From assembly GCF_003334355.1 (NCBI RefSeq), contig NZ_QOWP01000010.1: DNA of 64,000 nucleotides; one strand, given 5' to 3'. Below the pieces are notes generated by a model. That model was not told the DNA's origin. It ran no database searches and was given only the letters and a program-made list of their open reading frames with translations. Of the stretch, positions 4,739 through 36,849 are shown piece after piece (the stretch's first letter is position 1; each line of letters starts with the position of its first letter). The position numbers and the translations under genes are program-made. Source of the DNA: Escherichia coli. GTDB lineage: Bacteria; Pseudomonadota; Gammaproteobacteria; Enterobacterales; Enterobacteriaceae.

Positions 4739-6499
4739 TTATTTTGCCCAGAATGCTGCTTTGGCGCGCTGCAGCTTTTCGTAGGCCTTCAACAACGACT
4801 GATGTGCAGCAAACGCGTGCAGATCGCTATCTACCGGTTGCAGGCCGTAAAACGCCGCTTCGCCGCTCATTGCCGCACTGGCGGCTTCTACGGCATCTGC
4901 GCCGTACATGCGAACAAACGCATTCAGATATTGCAGCGGCTGGCGATCTTCTTCCTGTGCCAGTAATAACAACGTTTGCAGGCAGCGATAATAGTTGGCG
5001 CGTTCCGGACTAAATACTGATGAGTTAAACTCCATCGTCCATTCGGTCCAGACCAGAGCCTGTTCCAGATCGCCACCAGCCAGCGCCAGCATGGCTTTTA
5101 ATTCACCGATACGCAGGGTGTACCAACCGTTATCCGACCCGGTCGCCAGACCCAACAGCTCACGCACGCGGGTAAAGTCATCAAAACCTTCTTCATCCAG
5201 TTGCTCGATGAGGTTCAGGTAATCTTCTTTTTCCCACTCGCTGCCTGGTAGCGAAAGAATCGTTTCACGTAAATGGCTGCCCATACTGTTATTCGCGAGC
5301 CACAGATCTTCAGCCGGATAAATATCGGACATGCCAGGCACGATAATACGGCAAGCATAAACGCCCAGATGCTCGTAATCGGCAATATAAACTTCTTTAT
5401 CTTCTTTGTTGAAGATAGCCATCAGTGTGGCGAACTCTTCTTCCGTGGTGCCGGAGAAATTCCAGTCCACAAACGGATAATCGGCATCCTGCTTGAACAG
5501 GTCCCAGGAGATTAAACCGCTGGAATCGATAAAGTGCGTTTCGAGGTTGGTATGTTCAGCGACTTCTTCATCATCGAAGGTTGGCGGAGTAAACACATCC
5601 AAATCTTTCAGGCCACGACCTTGCAGCAGCTCGGTCACGGTACGTTCCAGTGCTACGCCAAAATCAGGATGCGCACCGAAAGAGGCAAAGCAGGTACCGT
5701 TAGCAGGATTGAACAGTACCACGCAAATCACCGGATACTGGCCGCCAAGCGAACCGTCATAAGCGAAGATTGGGAAACCCTCCGCTTCCAGCGTTTCGAT
5801 GGCTTCAACTACTGCTGGGTAACGCGCCAGCACGTCTGCCGGGATCTCTGGCAGGCTGATGCTTTCAGCAATAATGCGGTTTTTCACGTAGCGTTCGAAA
5901 ACTTCAGACAATCCCTGAACGCGTGCTTCGTTGCGGGTATTACCTGCGGACATACCGTTGGAGACGTACAGGTTACCAATGATATTCATCGGAATATAAA
6001 CGGTCTGATTGTCGGACTGACGCGTAAACGGCAGGCCGCAAATACCACGATCTTCGTTACCGGATTGTAGGTCAATCAGCATGCTGCCGGTCAGTTCATT
6101 CTCCGGATCATAAAACGCGCGCAGACGGTCATCGAGCAGCCCTTCTGGCACATCGTCATTTTCGGTCAGTGGGAACCATTTTTCGTTGGGATAATGCACG
6201 AACGGACCGTTGGCGATGGTTTCGCCCAGCCAGAAGTCCGCAAAAAAGTAGTTGGTTGAGAGACGCTCGAAATATTCACCGAGTGCAGAAGCCAGCGCCG
6301 CTTTCTTGGTTGCGCCTTTACCGTTGGTAAAACACAGTGCGCACTCTTTGTCGCGAATATGTACAGACCAGACGTTAGGCACGGGATTCAGCCAGGAGGC
6401 CTCTTCAATCTGAAAGCCGAGGTCTGAAAGTTTTTGCTGGAAGCGAGCGATGGAATCTTCCAGAGCGGCATCTTTGCCGGGGATAAATGTTTGCGTCAT
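4739..6499 (-). CDS. ycaO: YcaO protein (YcaO-domain ATP-dependent enzyme; S12 methylthiolation accessory factor)
   Basis: Track ORF is 597 aa; trimmed to the ATG at 6497-6499, giving MTQTFIPGKDAALEDSIARF (586 aa). Confidence 0.9.
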   Translation of the reverse strand: MTQTFIPGKDAALEDSIARFQQKLSDLGFQIEEASWLNPVPNVWSVHIRDKECALCFTNGKGATKKAALASALGEYFERLSTNYFFADFWLGETIANGPFVHYPNEKWFPLTENDDVPEGLLDDRLRAFYDPENELTGSMLIDLQSGNEDRGICGLPFTRQSDNQTVYIPMNIIGNLYVSNGMSAGNTRNEARVQGLSEVFERYVKNRIIAESISLPEIPADVLARYPAVVEAIETLEAEGFPIFAYDGSLGGQYPVICVVLFNPANGTCFASFGAHPDFGVALERTVTELLQGRGLKDLDVFTPPTFDDEEVAEHTNLETHFIDSSGLISWDLFKQDADYPFVDWNFSGTTEEEFATLMAIFNKEDKEVYIADYEHLGVYACRIIVPGMSDIYPAEDLWLANNSMGSHLRETILSLPGSEWEKEDYLNLIEQLDEEGFDDFTRVRELLGLATGSDNGWYTLRIGELKAMLALAGGDLEQALVWTEWTMEFNSSVFSPERANYYRCLQTLLLLAQEEDRQPLQYLNAFVRMYGADAVEAASAAMSGEAAFYGLQPVDSDLHAFAAHQSLLKAYEKLQRAKAAFWAK

Positions 6500-29100: not shown

Positions 29101-30653
29101 TTAGCTATTCTGACTCGGCAGAAATGCTTAGCGGTAACAGCGATCTCAACGAAAAACTGCGTGAACGTCTGGAACAGGCGGAAGCGGAGCGTACCCGCGC
29201 TCGCGAAGCGTTGCGCGGTCACGCAGCGCAGTTGAGTCAGTACAACCAGGTGCTGGCTTCGCTGAAAAGTTCTTACGACACCAAAAAAGAGCTACTCAAC
29301 GATCTGCAACGTGAATTGCAGGATATCGGCGTGCGTGCTGATAGCGGGGCAGAAGAGCGGGCGCGTATTCGCCGTGACGAGCTGCATGCGCAACTGAGCA
29401 ATAACCGTTCACGCCGCAATCAACTGGAAAAAGCGCTTACCTTCTGCGAAGCGGAGATGGACAACCTGACCCGCAAACTGCGCAAGCTGGAGCGGGATTA
29501 CTTTGAGATGCGCGAGCAGGTAGTGACCGCCAAAGCGGGCTGGTGTGCGGTGATGCGCATGGTGAAAGATAACGGCGTTGAGCGCCGCTTACACCGTCGT
29601 GAGCTGGCTTATCTCTCCGCTGATGATTTGCGTTCCATGTCGGATAAGGCGTTAGGTGCGCTGCGTCTGGCGGTGGCGGATAACGAACATCTGCGCGACG
29701 TGCTGCGCATGTCGGAAGATCCGAAACGTCCGGAGCGTAAAATTCAGTTCTTCGTGGCGGTTTATCAGCATCTGCGTGAACGTATTCGTCAGGATATTAT
29801 TCGTACCGATGATCCGGTGGAAGCTATCGAACAGATGGAGATTGAACTTAGCCGTCTGACCGAAGAATTAACCTCCCGTGAACAGAAACTGGCGATCAGT
29901 TCCCGCAGCGTGGCGAACATCATTCGCAAAACCATTCAGCGCGAGCAGAACCGTATCAGTATGCTCAACCAGGGGTTGCAGAACGTATCGTTTGGTCAGG
30001 TGAACAGCGTGCGTCTCAACGTGAACGTGCGTGAAACGCACGCCATGCTACTGGATGTGCTCTCTGAACAGCACGAGCAGCATCAGGATCTGTTTAACAG
30101 CAACCGTTTGACCTTCTCGGAAGCGCTGGCGAAACTGTATCAACGTCTTAACCCGCAGATTGATATGGGGCAGCGCACGCCGCAGACCATCGGTGAAGAA
30201 CTGCTGGATTACCGCAACTATCTGGAAATGGAAGTTGAGGTTAACCGTGGTTCCGATGGCTGGCTGCGCGCAGAGTCTGGTGCATTGTCGACCGGTGAGG
30301 CGATTGGTACCGGTATGTCGATTCTGGTGATGGTGGTACAAAGCTGGGAAGATGAATCTCGCCGCCTGCGCGGTAAAGATATCTCTCCTTGCCGCCTGCT
30401 GTTCCTCGATGAAGCAGCGCGACTGGATGCTCGTTCTATCGCCACGCTGTTTGAATTGTGTGAGCGTTTGCAAATGCAACTCATCATCGCAGCGCCGGAA
30501 AATATCAGCCCGGAGAAAGGCACCACCTATAAACTGGTGCGTAAAGTCTTCCAGAATACCGAACACGTTCATGTCGTCGGCCTGCGAGGATTTGCGCCGC
30601 AACTCCCTGAAACGCTTCCAGGAACTGACGAAGCGCCTTCTCAGGCGAGTTAA
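26193..30653 (+). CDS. mukB: chromosome partition protein MukB (SMC-like condensin ATPase)
   Basis: 1486-aa ORF; Walker [10 protein letters not shown], long coiled-coil middle; start overlaps the mukE stop by 1 nt (TAATG). Confidence 0.97.
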
Positions 30654-30657
30654 AATT

Positions 30658-30688
30658 AAGGCGGCAGCAATGCCGCCTTTTCTTTTTC
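30658..30688 (+). terminator. mukB rho-independent terminator
   Basis: aaggcggca/gcaa/tgccgcctt perfect 9-bp stem followed by ttctttttcc. Confidence 0.65.
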
Positions 30689-30913
30689 CGAAAACTCCGT
30701 TTCTGCACTAAAAAAGTGGCACATTACGGCGCGCTTTTCTTTAAACTTCTTTACATTAGGTTATGTAAAAACGTATCGGCGTTTATATACTGAAGATAAG
30801 CCTGATGAGTAACAGGCTTGCTCGTCATACTTTCGTGAGTATTGGCGTTGTACAGGCAAGTCGTAAAATAACAGCCTGGCTATTCAGAGTATGATAAAAA
30901 CAGGGGGCAAGGG

Positions 30914-32761
30914 ATGTTGCTTAATATGATGTGTGGTCGTCGGCTGTCGGCAATCAGTTTGTGCCTGGCCGTAACATTCGCTCCACTGTTCAATGCGCAG
31001 GCCGATGAGCCTGAAGTAATCCCTGGCGACAGCCCGGTGGCTGTCAGTGAACAGGGCGAGGCACTGCCGCAGGCGCAAGCCACGGCAATAATGGTGGGGA
31101 TCCAGCCATTGCCTGAAGGTGCGGCAGAAAAAGCCCGCACGCAAATCGAATCTCAATTACCCGCAGGTTACAAGCCGGTTTATCTTAACCAGCTTCAACT
31201 GTTGTATGCCGCACGCGATATGCAACCCATGTGGGAAAACCGTGATGCTGTTAAAGCCTTCCAGCAACAGCTGGCAGAGGTGGCGATTGCCGGTTTCCAG
31301 CCGCAGTTTAATAAATGGGTAGAGTTACTGACCGATCCTGGTGTTAACGGGATGGCACGCGACGTGGTGCTCTCTGATGCGATGATGGGCTATCTCCATT
31401 TCATTGCAAATATTCCGGTCAAAGGCACTCGCTGGCTATATAGCAGTAAACCTTATGCACTTGCAACGCCGCCGCTCTCGGTGATTAACCAATGGCAGCT
31501 GGCGCTGGATAAAGGTCAATTGCCTACGTTTGTTGCAGGACTGGCACCGCAGCATCCGCAATATGCGGCGATGCATGAATCGTTACTGGCCTTACTCAGT
31601 GACACCAAACCGTGGCCCCAACTGACCGGCAAAGCAACGTTGCGCCCAGGGCAGTGGAGTAACGACGTACCGGCGTTGCGCGAAATATTGCAACGCACAG
31701 GCATGTTGGACGGGGGGCCGAAAATTACTCTACCTGGCGATGACACGCCAACTGACGCGGTAGTCAGCCCATCCGCTGTTACTGTTGAAACAGCAGAAAC
31801 TAAGCCGATGGATAAGCAAACGACGTCTCGTAGTAAACCTGCGCCTGCCGTTCGCGCCACCTACGATAATGAACTGGTGGAAGCCGTTAAACGTTTTCAG
31901 GCATGGCAAGGATTGGGGGCAGATGGTGCTATTGGCCCGGCAACACGTGACTGGTTAAACGTAACGCCCGCCCAGCGTGCTGGCGTGTTGGCTCTCAACA
32001 TCCAGCGATTGCGCTTGCTGCCAACAGAGCTTTCTACCGGGATCATGGTTAACATTCCGGCCTATTCGCTGGTCTACTATCAGAACGGCAATCAGGTGCT
32101 GGATTCGCGAGTCATTGTCGGTCGCCCCGATCGCAAAACGCCGATGATGAGCAGTGCCCTTAACAACGTAGTGGTAAACCCGCCGTGGAACGTACCTCCA
32201 ACTCTGGCACGCAAAGATATTCTGCCAAAAGTGCGCAACGATCCGGGATATCTCGAAAGCCATGGCTATACGGTGATGCGCGGCTGGAACAGCAGAGAAG
32301 CGATTGACCCATGGCAGGTTGACTGGTCTACAATCACGGCCTCGAATTTACCGTTCCGCTTCCAGCAGGCTCCAGGCCCACGGAACTCGCTGGGGCGCTA
32401 TAAATTCAATATGCCGAGTTCAGAGGCCATTTATTTGCATGACACGCCGAACCACAATCTGTTCAAGCGTGATACACGCGCATTGAGCTCAGGCTGTGTA
32501 CGAGTGAATAAAGCTTCCGATCTGGCGAATATGCTGTTGCAGGATGCAGGCTGGAATGACAAACGTATTTCTGATGCGCTGAAGCAGGGTGATACACGTT
32601 ACGTCAATATTCGGCAGTCGATTCCGGTGAATCTCTACTACCTGACGGCCTTTGTTGGTGCAGATGGTCGTACCCAGTATCGTACAGATATTTACAATTA
32701 TGATCTGCCTGCGCGATCCAGCTCGCAAATCGTATCGAAAGCGGAACAATTAATCAGGTAA
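30914..32761 (+). CDS. ldtD: L,D-transpeptidase (YkuD domain) with peptidoglycan-binding domain
   Basis: 615-aa ORF with signal peptide; catalytic-Cys motif region (LSSGCVRV) recognised as YcbB/LdtD. Confidence 0.9.
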
Positions 32762-32941
32762 ATGAAGTAGTTCGGGGAAATCAGTTGTCGTAATAATTAG
32801 CATGATTGGGGGCGATTCTCTGCAGCCCCCGTCACTGCTGGGGTTGAGTCATCTTGACGTCTGCTTTACGGGCGGTTAAGGTGCCTCTTGTGCGCCAGAA
32901 GTGCATATAAACGATAACATTGACCTGTAGACTTGATTATC

Positions 32942-33490
32942 ATGGACAAATTCGACGCTAATCGCCGCAAATTGCTGGCGCTTGGTGGCGTTGCACTCGG
33001 TGCCGCCATCCTGCCGACCCCTGCGTTTGCAACACTCTCTACCCCACGCCCGCGCATTTTGACACTCAATAATCTTCATACCGGAGAGTCAATCAAAGCG
33101 GAGTTTTTCGATGGCAGAGGCTATATTCAGGAAGAATTGGCAAAACTTAACCATTTTTTCCGCGATTACCGCGCGAACAAAATAAAGTCCATCGACCCAG
33201 GATTATTCGACCAGTTGTATCGCCTGCAAGGGTTGTTAGGCACGCGCAAACCGGTGCAACTCATTTCCGGTTATCGTTCTATTGATACCAACAATGAACT
33301 ACGCGCCCGCAGCCGTGGAGTAGCGAAGAAAAGCTATCACACTAAAGGCCAGGCGATGGATTTCCATATTGAAGGTATCGCGTTAAGCAATATTCGCAAA
33401 GCCGCGTTATCTATGCGCGCAGGTGGTGTAGGATATTATCCACGTAGTAACTTTGTGCATATTGATACCGGGCCAGCACGGCACTGGTAG
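32942..33490 (+). CDS. mepK: Tat-exported peptidoglycan endopeptidase (DUF882 / M15-like)
   Basis: Trimmed to the ATG at 32942 (MDKFDANRRKLLALGGVALGAA, twin-arginine signal; 182 aa). Confidence 0.85.
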   Translation: MDKFDANRRKLLALGGVALGAAILPTPAFATLSTPRPRILTLNNLHTGESIKAEFFDGRGYIQEELAKLNHFFRDYRANKIKSIDPGLFDQLYRLQGLLGTRKPVQLISGYRSIDTNNELRARSRGVAKKSYHTKGQAMDFHIEGIALSNIRKAALSMRAGGVGYYPRSNFVHIDTGPARHW

Positions 33491-33516
33491 TAATTGCTTA
33501 ACGAAACAGGGGCAGT

Positions 33517-34164
33517 ATGAACTATCGTATTATTCCGGTCACCGCATTCTCCCAGAACTGTTCATTAATCTGGTGTGAACAAACCCGTCTGGCCGCACTG
33601 GTCGATCCTGGCGGCGATGCGGAAAAAATCAAACAGGAAGTTGATGACAGCGGCCTGACACTGATGCAGATCCTGCTGACTCATGGTCATCTGGACCACG
33701 TTGGCGCAGCGGCGGAACTGGCGCAACATTACGGCGTGCCGGTTTTCGGCCCGGAAAAAGAAGATGAGTTCTGGCTGCAAGGCTTGCCTGCGCAAAGTCG
33801 TATGTTTGGTCTGGAAGAGTGCCAGCCGCTGACGCCAGATCGTTGGCTGAACGAAGGCGATACCATCAGCATAGGGAATGTGACTTTACAGGTGTTACAT
33901 TGCCCTGGGCATACGCCGGGTCATGTCGTGTTTTTTGATGATCGGGCAAAGCTGCTGATTTCTGGCGATGTTATTTTCAAAGGCGGAGTAGGGCGCAGTG
34001 ACTTCCCGCGTGGCGATCATAATCAACTGATTTCTTCAATCAAAGATAAATTGCTGCCACTGGGGGATGACGTGATATTTATTCCGGGTCACGGACCATT
34101 ATCCACACTTGGTTATGAACGCCTGCATAATCCCTTCCTGCAAGACGAAATGCCCGTCTGGTAA
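33517..34164 (+). CDS. gloC: metallo-beta-lactamase-fold hydroxyacylglutathione hydrolase (glyoxalase II-type)
   Basis: 215-aa ORF; HxHxDH motif (THGHLDHVG). Confidence 0.9.
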
Positions 34165-34170
34165 GGCACA

Positions 34171-34196
34171 TAAAAAAGCCCGCTTTTAATGCGGGC
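34171..34196 (-). terminator. rho-independent terminator for aspC transcripts
   Basis: Stem gcccgc/gcgggc (34178-34196) preceded on + by aaaaaa, giving hairpin + U-run on the minus strand. Confidence 0.5.
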
Positions 34197-34227
34197 CTGG
34201 ATTTCTGGCAAAGTGCGCTTTGTTTAT

Positions 34228-34325
34228 GCCGGATGCGGCACGAGCGCCTTATCCGGCCTACAAAATCGTGCAAATTCAAAATATTGCAGGGGACGCGTAG
34301 GCCTGATAAGCGTAGCGCATCAGGC
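34228..34325. repeat. BIME: two REP (repetitive extragenic palindromic) units in inverted orientation
   Basis: gccggatgcggcacgagcgccttatccggcctac (34228-34261) and gtaggcctgataagcgtagcgcatcaggc (34297-34325) match the E. coli REP consensus. Confidence 0.8.
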
Positions 34326-34349
34326 AATGTTGCGTTTGTCATCAGTCTC

Positions 34350-34380
34350 AGCCCGCTTTTCAGCGGGCTTCATTGTTTTT
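34350..34380 (+). terminator. hairpin + T-rich tail (terminator-like for + strand transcripts from gloC)
   Basis: agcccgc/ttttca/gcgggct perfect 7-bp stem followed by tcattgttttt. Confidence 0.4.
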
Positions 34381-34385
34381 AATGC

Positions 34386-35576
34386 TTACAGCACTGCCAC
34401 AATCGCTTCGCACAGCGGAGCCATGTTATCTGGTGTCATCCCGGCCACATTTACGCGACCAGAAGCAACCGCATATACGCCAAACTCTTCGCGCAGACGC
34501 AGCACTTGTTCTTTTGTCAGGCCACTGAAGGAGAACATGCCGTTCTGTTTGATGATAAAGCTGAAGTCGCGGTTTGCGCCTTTTTCCTGCAGCGTATTGA
34601 CGAACAACTGACGCATACGCTGAATACGCTGGCGCATATCAGTCAGCTCTTGTTCCCAAATCGCACGTAACGCATCGTTGCTCAGGATGGTGGCAACAAC
34701 AGAAGCGCCGTGTGCTGGTGGGTTAGAGTAGTTAGCGCGAATCGCCGCTTTCATTTGGCTGAATGCGCGATCAACGGTTTCACTGTCGGCAGCAACCAGA
34801 GTACAAGCGCCAACACGCTCGTTGTACAGGCCAAAGTTTTTAGAGTAGGAACTGGCAACAATCAGCTCTTTATGCATAGCCGCGAAAGCGCGCAGTCCTT
34901 CAGCATCTTCTTCCAGACCACGGGCAAAACCCTGGTAAGCGAAGTCAAACAGCGGTAACCAGCCTTTCTCAACGGAGAGTTGTGCCAGTGTTTGCCATTG
35001 TTCCAGCGTAGGGTCGATACCGGTTGGGTTATGGCAGCAGCCATGGAACAGCACTACGTCGCCAGCCTGAGCTTCATTCAGGCTGTTAATCAGTGCATCG
35101 AAGTCAAGAGTGTGATTTTCCGCATCATAATAAGCGTATTCACGAACTTCCAGACCTGCAGAGTTAAAGACGCTCTTATGGTTCGGCCAGCTTGGGTTGC
35201 TCACCCACACACGCTTAACGCTGGTATTTTTTGCCAGGAAATCGGCAGCCACGCGTAGTGCGCCAGTGCCCCCCGGAGTCTGTGCCGTGCGAGCACGTTT
35301 GTCATTGATCAGGGCGCTACCTTTACCAAACAGCAGTTCCTGAGTGCAGCGACCAAATTCAGGGATGCCGTCAATGCCGAGGTAATTTTTGGTGGTTTCA
35401 TTTTCGAGCAGATACTGTTCAGCCTTTTTCACGCTGGTCAGTACCGGGGTTTTGCCCGTCTCATCTTTATAGACACCAATCCCGAGGTTAATTTTGCCGG
35501 GACGTTCATCGGCACGAAACAGATCGGCCAGGCCCAGAATCGGGTCGGCAGGAGCGGCGGTAATGTTCTCAAACAT
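34386..35576 (-). CDS. aspC: aspartate aminotransferase
   Basis: 396-aa ORF; [36 protein letters not shown] recognised. Confidence 0.97.
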
Positions 35577-35705
35577 GACGAGGTTCCATTATGGTTACAG
35601 AAGGGAAGTCCGCTATCAGGGTAACGGGAGATTTACAAAATTCCAACTATTACTGATGAAAACTCAGGCTGTTTTTGCAAGACGTGAGATTGCTCTGGAA
35701 GGTAT

Positions 35706-35735
35706 AAAAAAAACAGGACCAAAGTCCTGTTTTTT
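35706..35735 (-). terminator. ompF rho-independent terminator (bidirectional-looking)
   Basis: aaaaaaa acaggac caaa gtcctgt ttttt: perfect 7-bp stem flanked by an A-run and a T-run. Confidence 0.65.
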
Positions 35736-35760
35736 CGGCATTTAACAAAGAGGTGTGCTA

Positions 35761-36849
35761 TTAGAACTGGTAAACGATACCCACAGCAACGGTGTCGTCT
35801 GAACCTACGCCCAGTTTGTTGTCAGAATCGATCTGGTTGATGATGTAGTCAACATAGGTGGACATATTTTTGTTGAAGTAGTAGGTTGCGCCCACTTCAA
35901 AGTAGTTCACCAGATCAACATCACCGATACCTTCTACGTCTTTCGCTTTAGATTTGGTGTAAGCGATGGACGGACGCAGACCGAAATCGAACTGGTATTG
36001 CGCAACTAACAGAACGTCTTGCGTTTTGTTGGCGAAGCCGCTGGTGTTTGTAAATTTATTAGTAATCGGCGTAGCGTTACGGGTTTCACCGTAGTTCGCT
36101 GCCAGGTAGATGTTGTTCGCGTCGTACTTCAGACCAGTAGCCCACTGTTCAGCTTTTTTACCGTTGCCAAGAGGTTGAGCTTCTTGCAGGTTGGTACGGT
36201 CAGCTGCACCATAAGCACCAACGATACCAAAGCCTTCGTATTCGTAGCTGATAGAACCGCCAACACCGTCGCCGTTAGAGCGGCGTGCAGTGTCACGCTC
36301 GTTTTTACCCAGGTACTGAACAGCGAAGTTCAGGCCATCAACCAGACCAAAGAAGTTGGAGTTACGATAGGTAGCAACGCCGCCAACACGACCAACGAAG
36401 AAGTCATCGCTGTATGCAGTATCACCACCAAATTCTGGCAGCATATCGGTGTAACCCAGTGCATCATAAACCACACCGTAGTTACGGCCGTAATCGAAAG
36501 AACCAATGTCAGCGTATTTAAGACCCGCGAATGCCAGACGCGTTTTGTTACCAGTTTGAGCGTCAGCGCCTTCAGAGTTGTTACCCTGGAAGTTATATTC
36601 CCACTGACCATAACCGGTCAGATCGGAATTGATTTGTGTTTCCCCTTTAAAACCAAGACGGGCATAAGTTTTGTCGCCGTTTCCGCCGTAACTGTTTACA
36701 CCATTGTCTTTAGAAAAATAATGCAGACCGACAGCTTTACCGTACAGATCTACTTTGTTGCCATCTTTGTTATAGATTTCTGCAGCGTTTGCAGTACCTG
36801 CTACTAACAGAGCAGGGACGATCACTGCCAGAATATTGCGCTTCATCAT
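35761..36849 (-). CDS. ompF: outer membrane porin F
   Basis: 362-aa ORF; [38 protein letters not shown] ... VGIVYQF recognised. Confidence 0.97.

Follow-up and report, generated by a model that had tools for sequence, protein, structure and literature searches.

The ldtD-mepK-gloC locus of Escherichia coli: a make/break pair for 3-3 cross-links in two probable transcription units, with gloC as a likely passenger

A stretch of 64,000 nucleotides from Escherichia coli (contig NZ_QOWP01000010.1 of assembly GCF_003334355.1), referred to here as the window, carries at positions 30,914 to 34,164 three adjacent genes that encode the L,D-transpeptidase LdtD, the endopeptidase MepK and GloC, a hydrolase of the metallo-β-lactamase (MBL) fold. 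Analysis of this locus and its relatives indicates, with good likelihood, that the genes are expressed as two transcription units, ldtD and mepK-gloC, that LdtD and MepK are a functional pair which makes and breaks the same peptidoglycan bond, and that gloC is carried along as a passenger. The genes, as given by the list of open reading frames (ORFs), the sequence and annotation, are:

30914-32761, plus strand: ldtD (ycbB), 615 amino acids
32942-33490, plus strand: mepK (ycbK), 182 amino acids
33517-34164, plus strand: gloC (ycbL), 215 amino acids

The window is part of the E. coli chromosome. With a 4-kb query from around the locus, matches were obtained in all 5426 complete E. coli genomes, in 5422 of which a single place covered at least 80% of the query, and the best of these matches were 99.9% identical and annotated mukB / ldtD / mepK / gloC / aspC. 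The corresponding genes of E. coli K-12 (b0925, b0926 and b0927) have the same locus, order, lengths and gaps, and nothing material differs. A first-pass annotation of this DNA had placed the three reading frames with gaps of 180 bp (ldtD-mepK) and 26 bp (mepK-gloC), and both frames and gaps proved exact when checked against the ORF list and the sequence; mukB lies 260 bp from ldtD. The start of mepK is ATG 32942, which is annotated and is the sole start kept across genera, where the mechanical ORF list has TTG 32933.

LdtD scored 1199 bits against the NCBIfam equivalog NF007891 (cut-off 425) over residues 1-615, and Pfam domains were found at residues 93-224 (Scaffold), 313-348 (PG_binding_1) and 376-542 (YkuD, E = 7.7e-26). 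The catalytic motifs, HDTP at residue 509 and SSGC with Cys528, are intact, the solved YcbB structure (PDB 6ntw) aligns with residues 31-615, and the protein carries the N-terminal signal sequence of a periplasmic L,D-transpeptidase. LdtD is thus a YkuD-family L,D-transpeptidase (Ldt) of the YcbB/LdtD type, an enzyme reported to form 3-3 (mDAP3-mDAP3, between meso-diaminopimelate residues) cross-links (PMC12729407; bioRxiv 10.1101/2021.02.12.430937). For comparison, the best 80 loci, all from Enterobacterales species and with MepK identities of 69-98%, were collected. Among these loci, divergence is much faster in LdtD than in the neighbouring MepK and GloC: identities to the E. coli proteins were ∼80%, ∼97% and ∼91%, respectively, in Citrobacter and ∼57%, ∼80% and ∼70% in Serratia, and a locus labelled E. 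coli (L003) has an LdtD that is just 94% identical alongside a MepK at 98%.

MepK matched the NCBIfam equivalog NF053624 with 274.9 bits (cut-off 185) and Pfam Peptidase_M15_2 (DUF882, PF05951) over residues 33-182 (E = 3.3e-61). Its zinc motif, S131-x-H133-x2-G-x-A-x-D140 (SYHTKGQAMD, residues 131-140), is complemented by a distal H173, and H133, D140 and H173 were invariant among 65 diverse MepK homologues. The N-terminus reads as a twin-arginine translocation (Tat) signal, with N-R8-R9-K-L-L, a hydrophobic stretch and AFA at 28-30; in the same homologues R9 was invariant and R8 at least 90% conserved. MepK is accordingly classed, by its matches and motifs, as a predicted L,D-endopeptidase of the DUF882 / Peptidase_M15_2 family with a Tat signal. 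Experiments in Salmonella have shown that export depends on Tat, and the literature describes MepK as a zinc metallopeptidase that cleaves 3-3 cross-links (PMC8262268). A sequence search of the PDB with MepK/DUF882 returned no related solved structure, the one match being a spurious hit to a leucine-rich-repeat protein (E = 7e-4).

Fusions of DUF882 to an Ldt or MBL domain were sought among 150 diverse representatives, and none was found. Three MepK-type proteins (P0148, P0165 and P0173) and about 25 other representatives are 500-730 amino acids long with an N-terminal DUF882 domain, and were considered as possible Rosetta-stone fusions; they were rejected as such, the extra sequence having no BLASTP similarity to LdtD or GloC. 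In the three sequences that were read, the DUF882 domain is followed by a low-complexity, Ala/Pro-rich tail of 400-500 residues, and no second domain was detected in the long proteins by Pfam (P0148) or NCBIfam (five proteins).

The two enzymes are predicted to act on the same bond, and the first-pass annotation had proposed on this ground a balanced remodelling module. The proposal agrees with published genetics: production of YcbB/LdtD is lethal in a mepK deletion strain (Voedts et al. 2021, bioRxiv 10.1101/2021.02.12.430937), and MepK belongs, according to the same report, to the minimal set of endopeptidases for growth with 3-3 cross-links. The same maker and cutter of 3-3 cross-links form the LdtD/YcbB-MepK pair of Chodisetti and Reddy (2019, cited in Voedts et al.) and Voedts et al. 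(2021). Whereas that work covers genetic dependence, the present analysis documents the adjacency of the genes, its conservation and the architecture of the intergenic promoter region. A literature search, the scope of which did not extend to the original MepK (PNAS 2019) and ldtD/Cpx (J Bacteriol 2015) papers, found no remark on the ldtD-mepK adjacency.

The order ldtD-mepK-gloC was found in all 80 Enterobacterales species wherever the locus was uncut by a contig end, with ldtD present in 77 of 77 loci that have upstream DNA and gloC directly 3′ of mepK in 80 of 80. The wider order mukB, ldtD, mepK, gloC, aspC, ompF was likewise the same in all uncut loci, and the whole block was seen in 59 of the 80. 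Since this block keeps its order including the unrelated genes mukB, aspC and ompF, conservation within one order is by itself no proof of selection on pairs of genes, and the adjacency could be devoid of functional meaning, a case of inherited synteny of a stable block mukFEB-ldtD-mepK-gloC-aspC-ompF in Enterobacterales. Loci from outside this order speak against such an explanation. Among 14 MepK-type loci with 42-66% identity (a small set, gathered one by one and not systematic), a YcbB-type L,D-transpeptidase gene is the immediate neighbour of mepK in seven, from alpha-, beta- and gammaproteobacteria: L082, L083, L084, L089, L091, L096 (Cupriavidus metallidurans, a betaproteobacterium) and L097 (Paracoccus ferrooxidans, an alphaproteobacterium, where the pair is divergent). 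Most of the seven lack mukB, aspC and ompF, with no copy near the Ldt-MepK neighbours in L083, L084, L089, L096 and L097, which argues that the adjacency is older than the enterobacterial synteny block. Together with the demonstrated dependence of LdtD production on MepK and a documented shared transcript of mepK and gloC (PMC2731931), these loci leave inherited synteny an improbable account of the arrangement. The pairing of a making and a breaking enzyme is old and functional, and the lethality of LdtD production without MepK explains why the ldtD-mepK neighbourhood has been kept across Proteobacteria.

The gloC gene follows mepK over a narrower range. Of the 14 distant loci, three (L082, L085 and L091) have a GloC-like gene, 50-54% identical, directly 3′ of mepK, overlapping it in L082; in L083 such a gene lies 3 kb from mepK, and it is absent from the remaining distant loci. 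Only Enterobacterales and a few relatives have the GloC linkage.

To compare the 180-bp gap between ldtD and mepK, alignments were combined with per-sequence hairpin detection at the loci of the 80 Enterobacterales species. The gap measures ∼171-189 bp in most genera and, in E. coli, folds as a whole at -70.6 kcal/mol (z = -4.3 against shuffles). Four conserved elements were apparent in the alignments:

32763-32792, plus strand: element directly after the ldtD stop codon, TGAAGTA (32763-32769) ... TCGTA (32788-32792), conserved in position in the alignments
32798-32840, plus strand: stable hairpin with core GGGGGC...GCCCCC at 32808-32830, about -21 kcal/mol
32854-32882, plus strand: candidate sigma-70-type promoter of mepK-gloC, with -35 TTGACG at 32854-32859, a 17-nt spacer and -10 TAAGGT at 32877-32882
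32891-32905, plus strand: small stem-loop TGCGC-CAGAA-GTGCA, from alignments and fold, close to where the mepK mRNA is predicted to begin

The hairpin was present at the same place in every gap that was folded, with a stem sequence that differs between genera, and it likely acts as an ldtD terminator or 3′-end stabiliser. A consensus structure calculated with RNAalifold from the MAFFT alignment of the gap contained no pairs, the hairpins being out of register. The promoter pattern TTGAC[GT]-N17-TA[ATC][GT]GT occurred in the gap of 67 of 77 loci, as against two matches in the remaining 1.88 Mb on both strands, and its spacer was 17 nt in all sequences but one (18 nt). A simple promoter scan had missed the site because the -10 hexamer fits just three of six consensus positions. 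The stem-loop that follows may serve as a stabiliser of the mRNA 5′ end. The same literature search turned up no named mepK promoter or published ycbK promoter sequence, and the precisely located, very strongly conserved candidate promoter and the hairpin architecture of the gap are an addition of this analysis.

Eight loci (L012, Salmonella arizonae, and L033, L034, L035, L038, L039, L053 and L059) have 70-125 extra bases between the conserved promoter and the mepK ATG, which would give a 5′ untranslated region much longer than that of E. coli.

The second junction is short and contains little besides a ribosome-binding site:

33491-33516, plus strand: mepK-gloC spacer, 26 bp, with Shine-Dalgarno AGGGG at 33508-33512

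Scans of 33440-33560 gave no terminator-like or promoter-like site, and the 26-bp spacer holds no hairpin. Lying on the same strand with a short spacer and a ribosome-binding site, mepK and gloC form a bicistronic operon. This agrees with Bury-Mone et al. (2009, PMC2731931), who list 'ycbK ycbL, b0926-7' as one sigma-E-induced operon, with 9.7- and 6.6-fold changes, and with a second transcriptome study in which ycbK and ycbL showed an identical 1.56-fold change (PMC4924334). The PMC2731931 table flags earlier identification of ycbK-ycbL by Rhodius et al. (2006) and Kabir et al. (2005). Co-transcription of mepK and gloC, suggested beforehand from the spacing, is thereby borne out, and the companion suggestion of a separate promoter for mepK fits the hairpin and conserved promoter of the gap as well as the assignment of ldtD to Cpx and of mepK-gloC to sigma-E.

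Across the 80 species the mepK-gloC spacer ranges from 13 to 327 bp. It is 30 bp or less in 32 species, only one of which has a hairpin there; of the 48 species with a longer spacer, 27 have a stable hairpin, and in eight of these 27 the hairpin is terminator-like with a T-rich tail (e.g. Hafnia and Edwardsiella). A coupling as tight as that of E. coli is characteristic of the Escherichia-Citrobacter-Salmonella-Enterobacter group, and in many genera the linkage is loosened by the intercistronic hairpin. Judging from these structures, the expression of gloC relative to mepK is probably lower in other genera.

L039 (Yersinia thracica) and L072 (Providencia vermicola) have larger spacers, of 181 bp and 327 bp respectively, with long imperfect inverted repeats in each insert. 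The Yersinia insert, which contains GCTCACCCCAGTCACTTAGCTATCTAAGCTTCTGGGGATT, presumably resembles an intergenic repeat of the enterobacterial repetitive intergenic consensus/intergenic repeat unit (ERIC/IRU) type.

In published work, ldtD is a member of the Cpx regulon (PMC12729407). Upstream of it, in the mukB-ldtD gap, candidate CpxR sites were found:

30740-30764, minus strand: two overlapping CpxR-box-like matches to GTAAA-N5-GTAAA, with one and two mismatches, ∼150-170 bp 5′ of the ldtD ATG

At up to two mismatches this pattern was found 71 times across the window against 51 expected, a near-chance frequency that lends the matches weak support. A further match with two mismatches, TTAACCGCCCGTAAA, lies on the minus strand at 32865-32879, in the spacer of the mepK promoter; at this near-chance stringency it is probably meaningless.

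mepK and gloC belong with sigma-E, for which a chromatin immunoprecipitation sequencing (ChIP-seq) peak in Salmonella falls at ycbK (PMC4577112). The best candidate for a sigma-E promoter of mepK, although not securely located, would be the element at 32763-32792. The conserved block begins with the stop codon itself, as TAAATG(A/C)AG, and of 79 distinct sequences about 46 have TCnnA at the constant distance of +29 from the stop. The Photorhabdus element reads GCAACTA-N17-TCATA, a reasonable sigma-E-type promoter, and the L016 group is also sigma-E-like; the Photorhabdus gap is just 76-162 bp long and does not have the TTGAC-type sigma-70 promoter element. Elsewhere in the region the best match to the canonical motif was:

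32382-32415, plus strand: GGAACTC-N17-TCAAT, inside ldtD, from the motif scan

The synonymous positions of this match vary in Citrobacter, Salmonella arizonae and the divergent E. coli locus L003, and it was set aside; it is probably a by-product of conserved LdtD motif codons, although it may yet be functional in this strain. The sigma-E operon of Bury-Mone et al. (2009) comprises the same co-induced genes; the conserved promoter of the gap is sigma-70-like instead. LdtD and MepK answer to different stress regulons, and the 'module' is not one co-regulated unit.

Just 3′ of the Photorhabdus sigma-E-like element, a tandem heptamer, GTGACCA, in ∼8-12 copies expands the gap in L079 (Photorhabdus bodei, ∼6040-6100) and L080 (P. 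caribbeanensis, ∼6040-6130), the copy number varying by species.

Whether ldtD is transcriptionally set apart from mepK bears on a second explanation, in which ldtD-mepK-gloC is effectively one stress operon: Cpx induction would raise MepK and GloC by read-through, and the internal promoter would provide basal MepK only. In its favour, the three genes are co-oriented with no gene between them in 80 species, and the lethality of LdtD without MepK would make an automatic coupling useful. Moreover, in E. coli the sequence after the hairpin at 32798-32840 is GGGGTTGAG, which has no U-tract. The published regulons point the other way, with ldtD reported under Cpx and ycbK-ycbL under sigma-E, and the sigma-E table has ycbK-ycbL without ycbB (PMC2731931). 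In several genera (Rahnella, Erwinia and Pantoea) a T-rich tail follows the hairpin, which there has the look of a proper terminator, and a strongly conserved, dedicated promoter lies 3′ of it. On this evidence a single operon seems unlikely, and two transcription units are preferred.

GloC was compared with both its own type and canonical glyoxalase II. It matched the solved Salmonella YcbL chain 2xf4 with E = 4.5e-136, and Lactamase_B (residues 9-192, E = 2.4e-41) was its sole strong Pfam domain, a second domain not being detected by Pfam. The metal site H56-G-H58-L-D60-H61, with H132, D151 and H192, is an intact MBL HxHxDH site, and the protein, having no signal peptide, is expected in the cytoplasm. 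Against the curated cut-offs of GloB-type models it fell short, with 110.3 vs 200.8 bits for TIGR03413 (GSH_gloB) and 73 vs 421 for PRK10241, and the TIGR03413 alignment spans only model positions 1-164 of 248, the N-terminal two-thirds. In common with canonical GloB (TIGR03413 / PRK10241) are the MBL fold, the HxHxDH metal site and a measurable hydrolysis of S-lactoylglutathione; unlike GloB, GloC is ∼35 residues shorter (215 amino acids vs models of 248-251), does not have the C-terminal helical domain and is less active. YcbL has been described as having no C-terminal helical domain, slower S-lactoylglutathione hydrolysis than a typical glyoxalase II and no beta-lactamase activity (PMC8431146), and GloC/YcbL as a minor glyoxalase II that hydrolyses S-D-lactoylglutathione in Salmonella (PMC7884692). 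The failed GloB cut-offs and the absent C-terminal domain indicate that GloC is a distinct YcbL-type MBL hydrolase and not a member of the GloB family.

These departures from GloB raise the question of why gloC is coupled to mepK. According to one explanation, the role of GloC is tied to envelope or peptidoglycan metabolism, its glyoxalase II activity is secondary and its link to mepK reflects a shared pathway. The failed GSH_gloB cut-off, the missing C-terminal domain with its slow hydrolysis of S-lactoylglutathione, and the joint induction with mepK by sigma-E are all compatible with this, as is the fact that gloC again adjoins mepK in three distant lineages, in one of which the two genes overlap. 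GloC, however, is cytoplasmic and without a signal peptide, MepK is periplasmic, and the literature records glyoxalase II activity as measured and beta-lactamase activity as absent. The linkage is also missing at 11 of the 14 distant MepK loci, and a stable hairpin separates the genes in 27 of the 80 Enterobacterales species. An envelope role is for these reasons considered very unlikely. The same low standing is given to its stronger form, in which GloC would primarily be an envelope-stress hydrolase working with MepK, for example on a thioester or peptide-like metabolite from peptidoglycan remodelling or recycling; if this were true, a shared pathway would lie behind the operon link, the induction by sigma-E and the distant gammaproteobacterial mepK-gloC adjacency. 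Most likely gloC is a co-expressed passenger of the mepK transcript, a matter of co-expression and not of a shared pathway. The first-pass annotation had called the reason for the coupling not evident, and this stays true, the linkage now appearing as lineage-restricted.

The preferred explanation, two units with a make/break pair and gloC as passenger, would work as follows. The first unit would be ldtD alone, driven from the 260-bp mukB-ldtD gap, activated by Cpx as in the literature, and ending at the hairpin 32798-32840. The second would be the bicistronic mepK-gloC, expressed from the sigma-70-type promoter at 32854-32882 with the additional sigma-E input documented in the literature. Under envelope stress LdtD would make 3-3 cross-links, and MepK, folded with zinc in the cytoplasm and exported by Tat, would cut them and so make expansion of the sacculus possible. 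The coordinates, the protein identities, the synteny and the conserved promoter and hairpins are results of this analysis; we infer the roles of the hairpins, the site of the sigma-E promoter and the passenger status of gloC, and take the regulons, the enzyme activities and the lethality from the literature.

Several observations weigh against this explanation. The E. coli gap hairpin having no U-tract, transcription could continue from ldtD into mepK, which would make the division into two units less sharp, and the candidate promoter at 32854-32882 is assigned by its conservation. A motif scan of the E. coli 180-bp gap for a canonical sigma-E promoter (GGAACTT-N16(+/-1)-TCAAA/TCTGA) gave none, the -35 of the E. 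coli post-stop element is poor and degenerate, and the match at 32382 inside ldtD, the best in the region, is not kept at synonymous positions. The survey of distant loci is of the limited kind stated above. Lastly, mepK-gloC adjacency in three distant lineages, at ∼47-66% MepK identity, is more than accident predicts, and mepK and gloC may be more truly linked than the label 'passenger' conveys.

The central facts about the locus, namely the gene identities, Tat export, make/break lethality, the sigma-E operon, Cpx control and the unusual nature of YcbL, are already known. New here are the architecture of the gap and the contrast of a wide Ldt-MepK adjacency with a narrow GloC link, a maker/cutter adjacency that is old across alpha-, beta- and gammaproteobacteria against a gloC link that is lineage-restricted. 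As the LdtD/MepK pair underlies both the cross-linking that bypasses beta-lactams and wall repair under outer-membrane stress, its regulation is clinically relevant, and the conserved candidate promoter and hairpins could guide reporter or mutagenesis work. Insertions in mepK may have polar effects on gloC, since this is the downstream gene of their shared transcript.

DUF882 proteins are also encoded on 261 records of plasmids or chromids. Pseudomonas accounts for 148 of these, those listed being mostly large plasmids. Five plasmid copies were inspected (L098-L101 and L103; 31-37% identity) and were discarded as relatives of the locus, being apparently a different paralogue group with plasmid-backbone or hypothetical neighbours; neither an L,D-transpeptidase nor GloC was found near these five. 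In two of the listed Pseudomonas plasmids the annotation has dsbG at the match, and in Variovorax L100 a dsbG gene lies ∼3.5 kb downstream.

The borders of the two units are marked by the following features:

30658-30679, plus strand: mukB intrinsic terminator, a 9-bp stem then a T-run (terminator scan), the upstream border of the ldtD unit
34176-34198: GC-rich hairpin 3′ of gloC (terminator scan), at the 3′ end of the operon
34222-34304: repeats of the repetitive extragenic palindromic (REP) type between the convergent gloC and aspC (Rfam matches)
34386-35576, convergent with gloC: aspC, the next gene after gloC

The hairpin at 34176-34198 has a T-run only on the minus strand and is consequently a weak terminator on the plus strand; a ycbL terminator has been used experimentally, with help from Rho (bioRxiv 10.1101/2022.07.21.500918). 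An Rfam search of 30000-36000 gave REP-related matches between gloC and aspC only, and none in the ldtD-mepK gap. These were ES036 (CssrF) at 34262-34304, with 53 bits against a gathering score of 37.6, and a weak match to naRNA4 at 34222-34258. The REP-type repeats are presumably the reason why the 4-kb query had 4-41 places per E. coli genome, with a median of 18.

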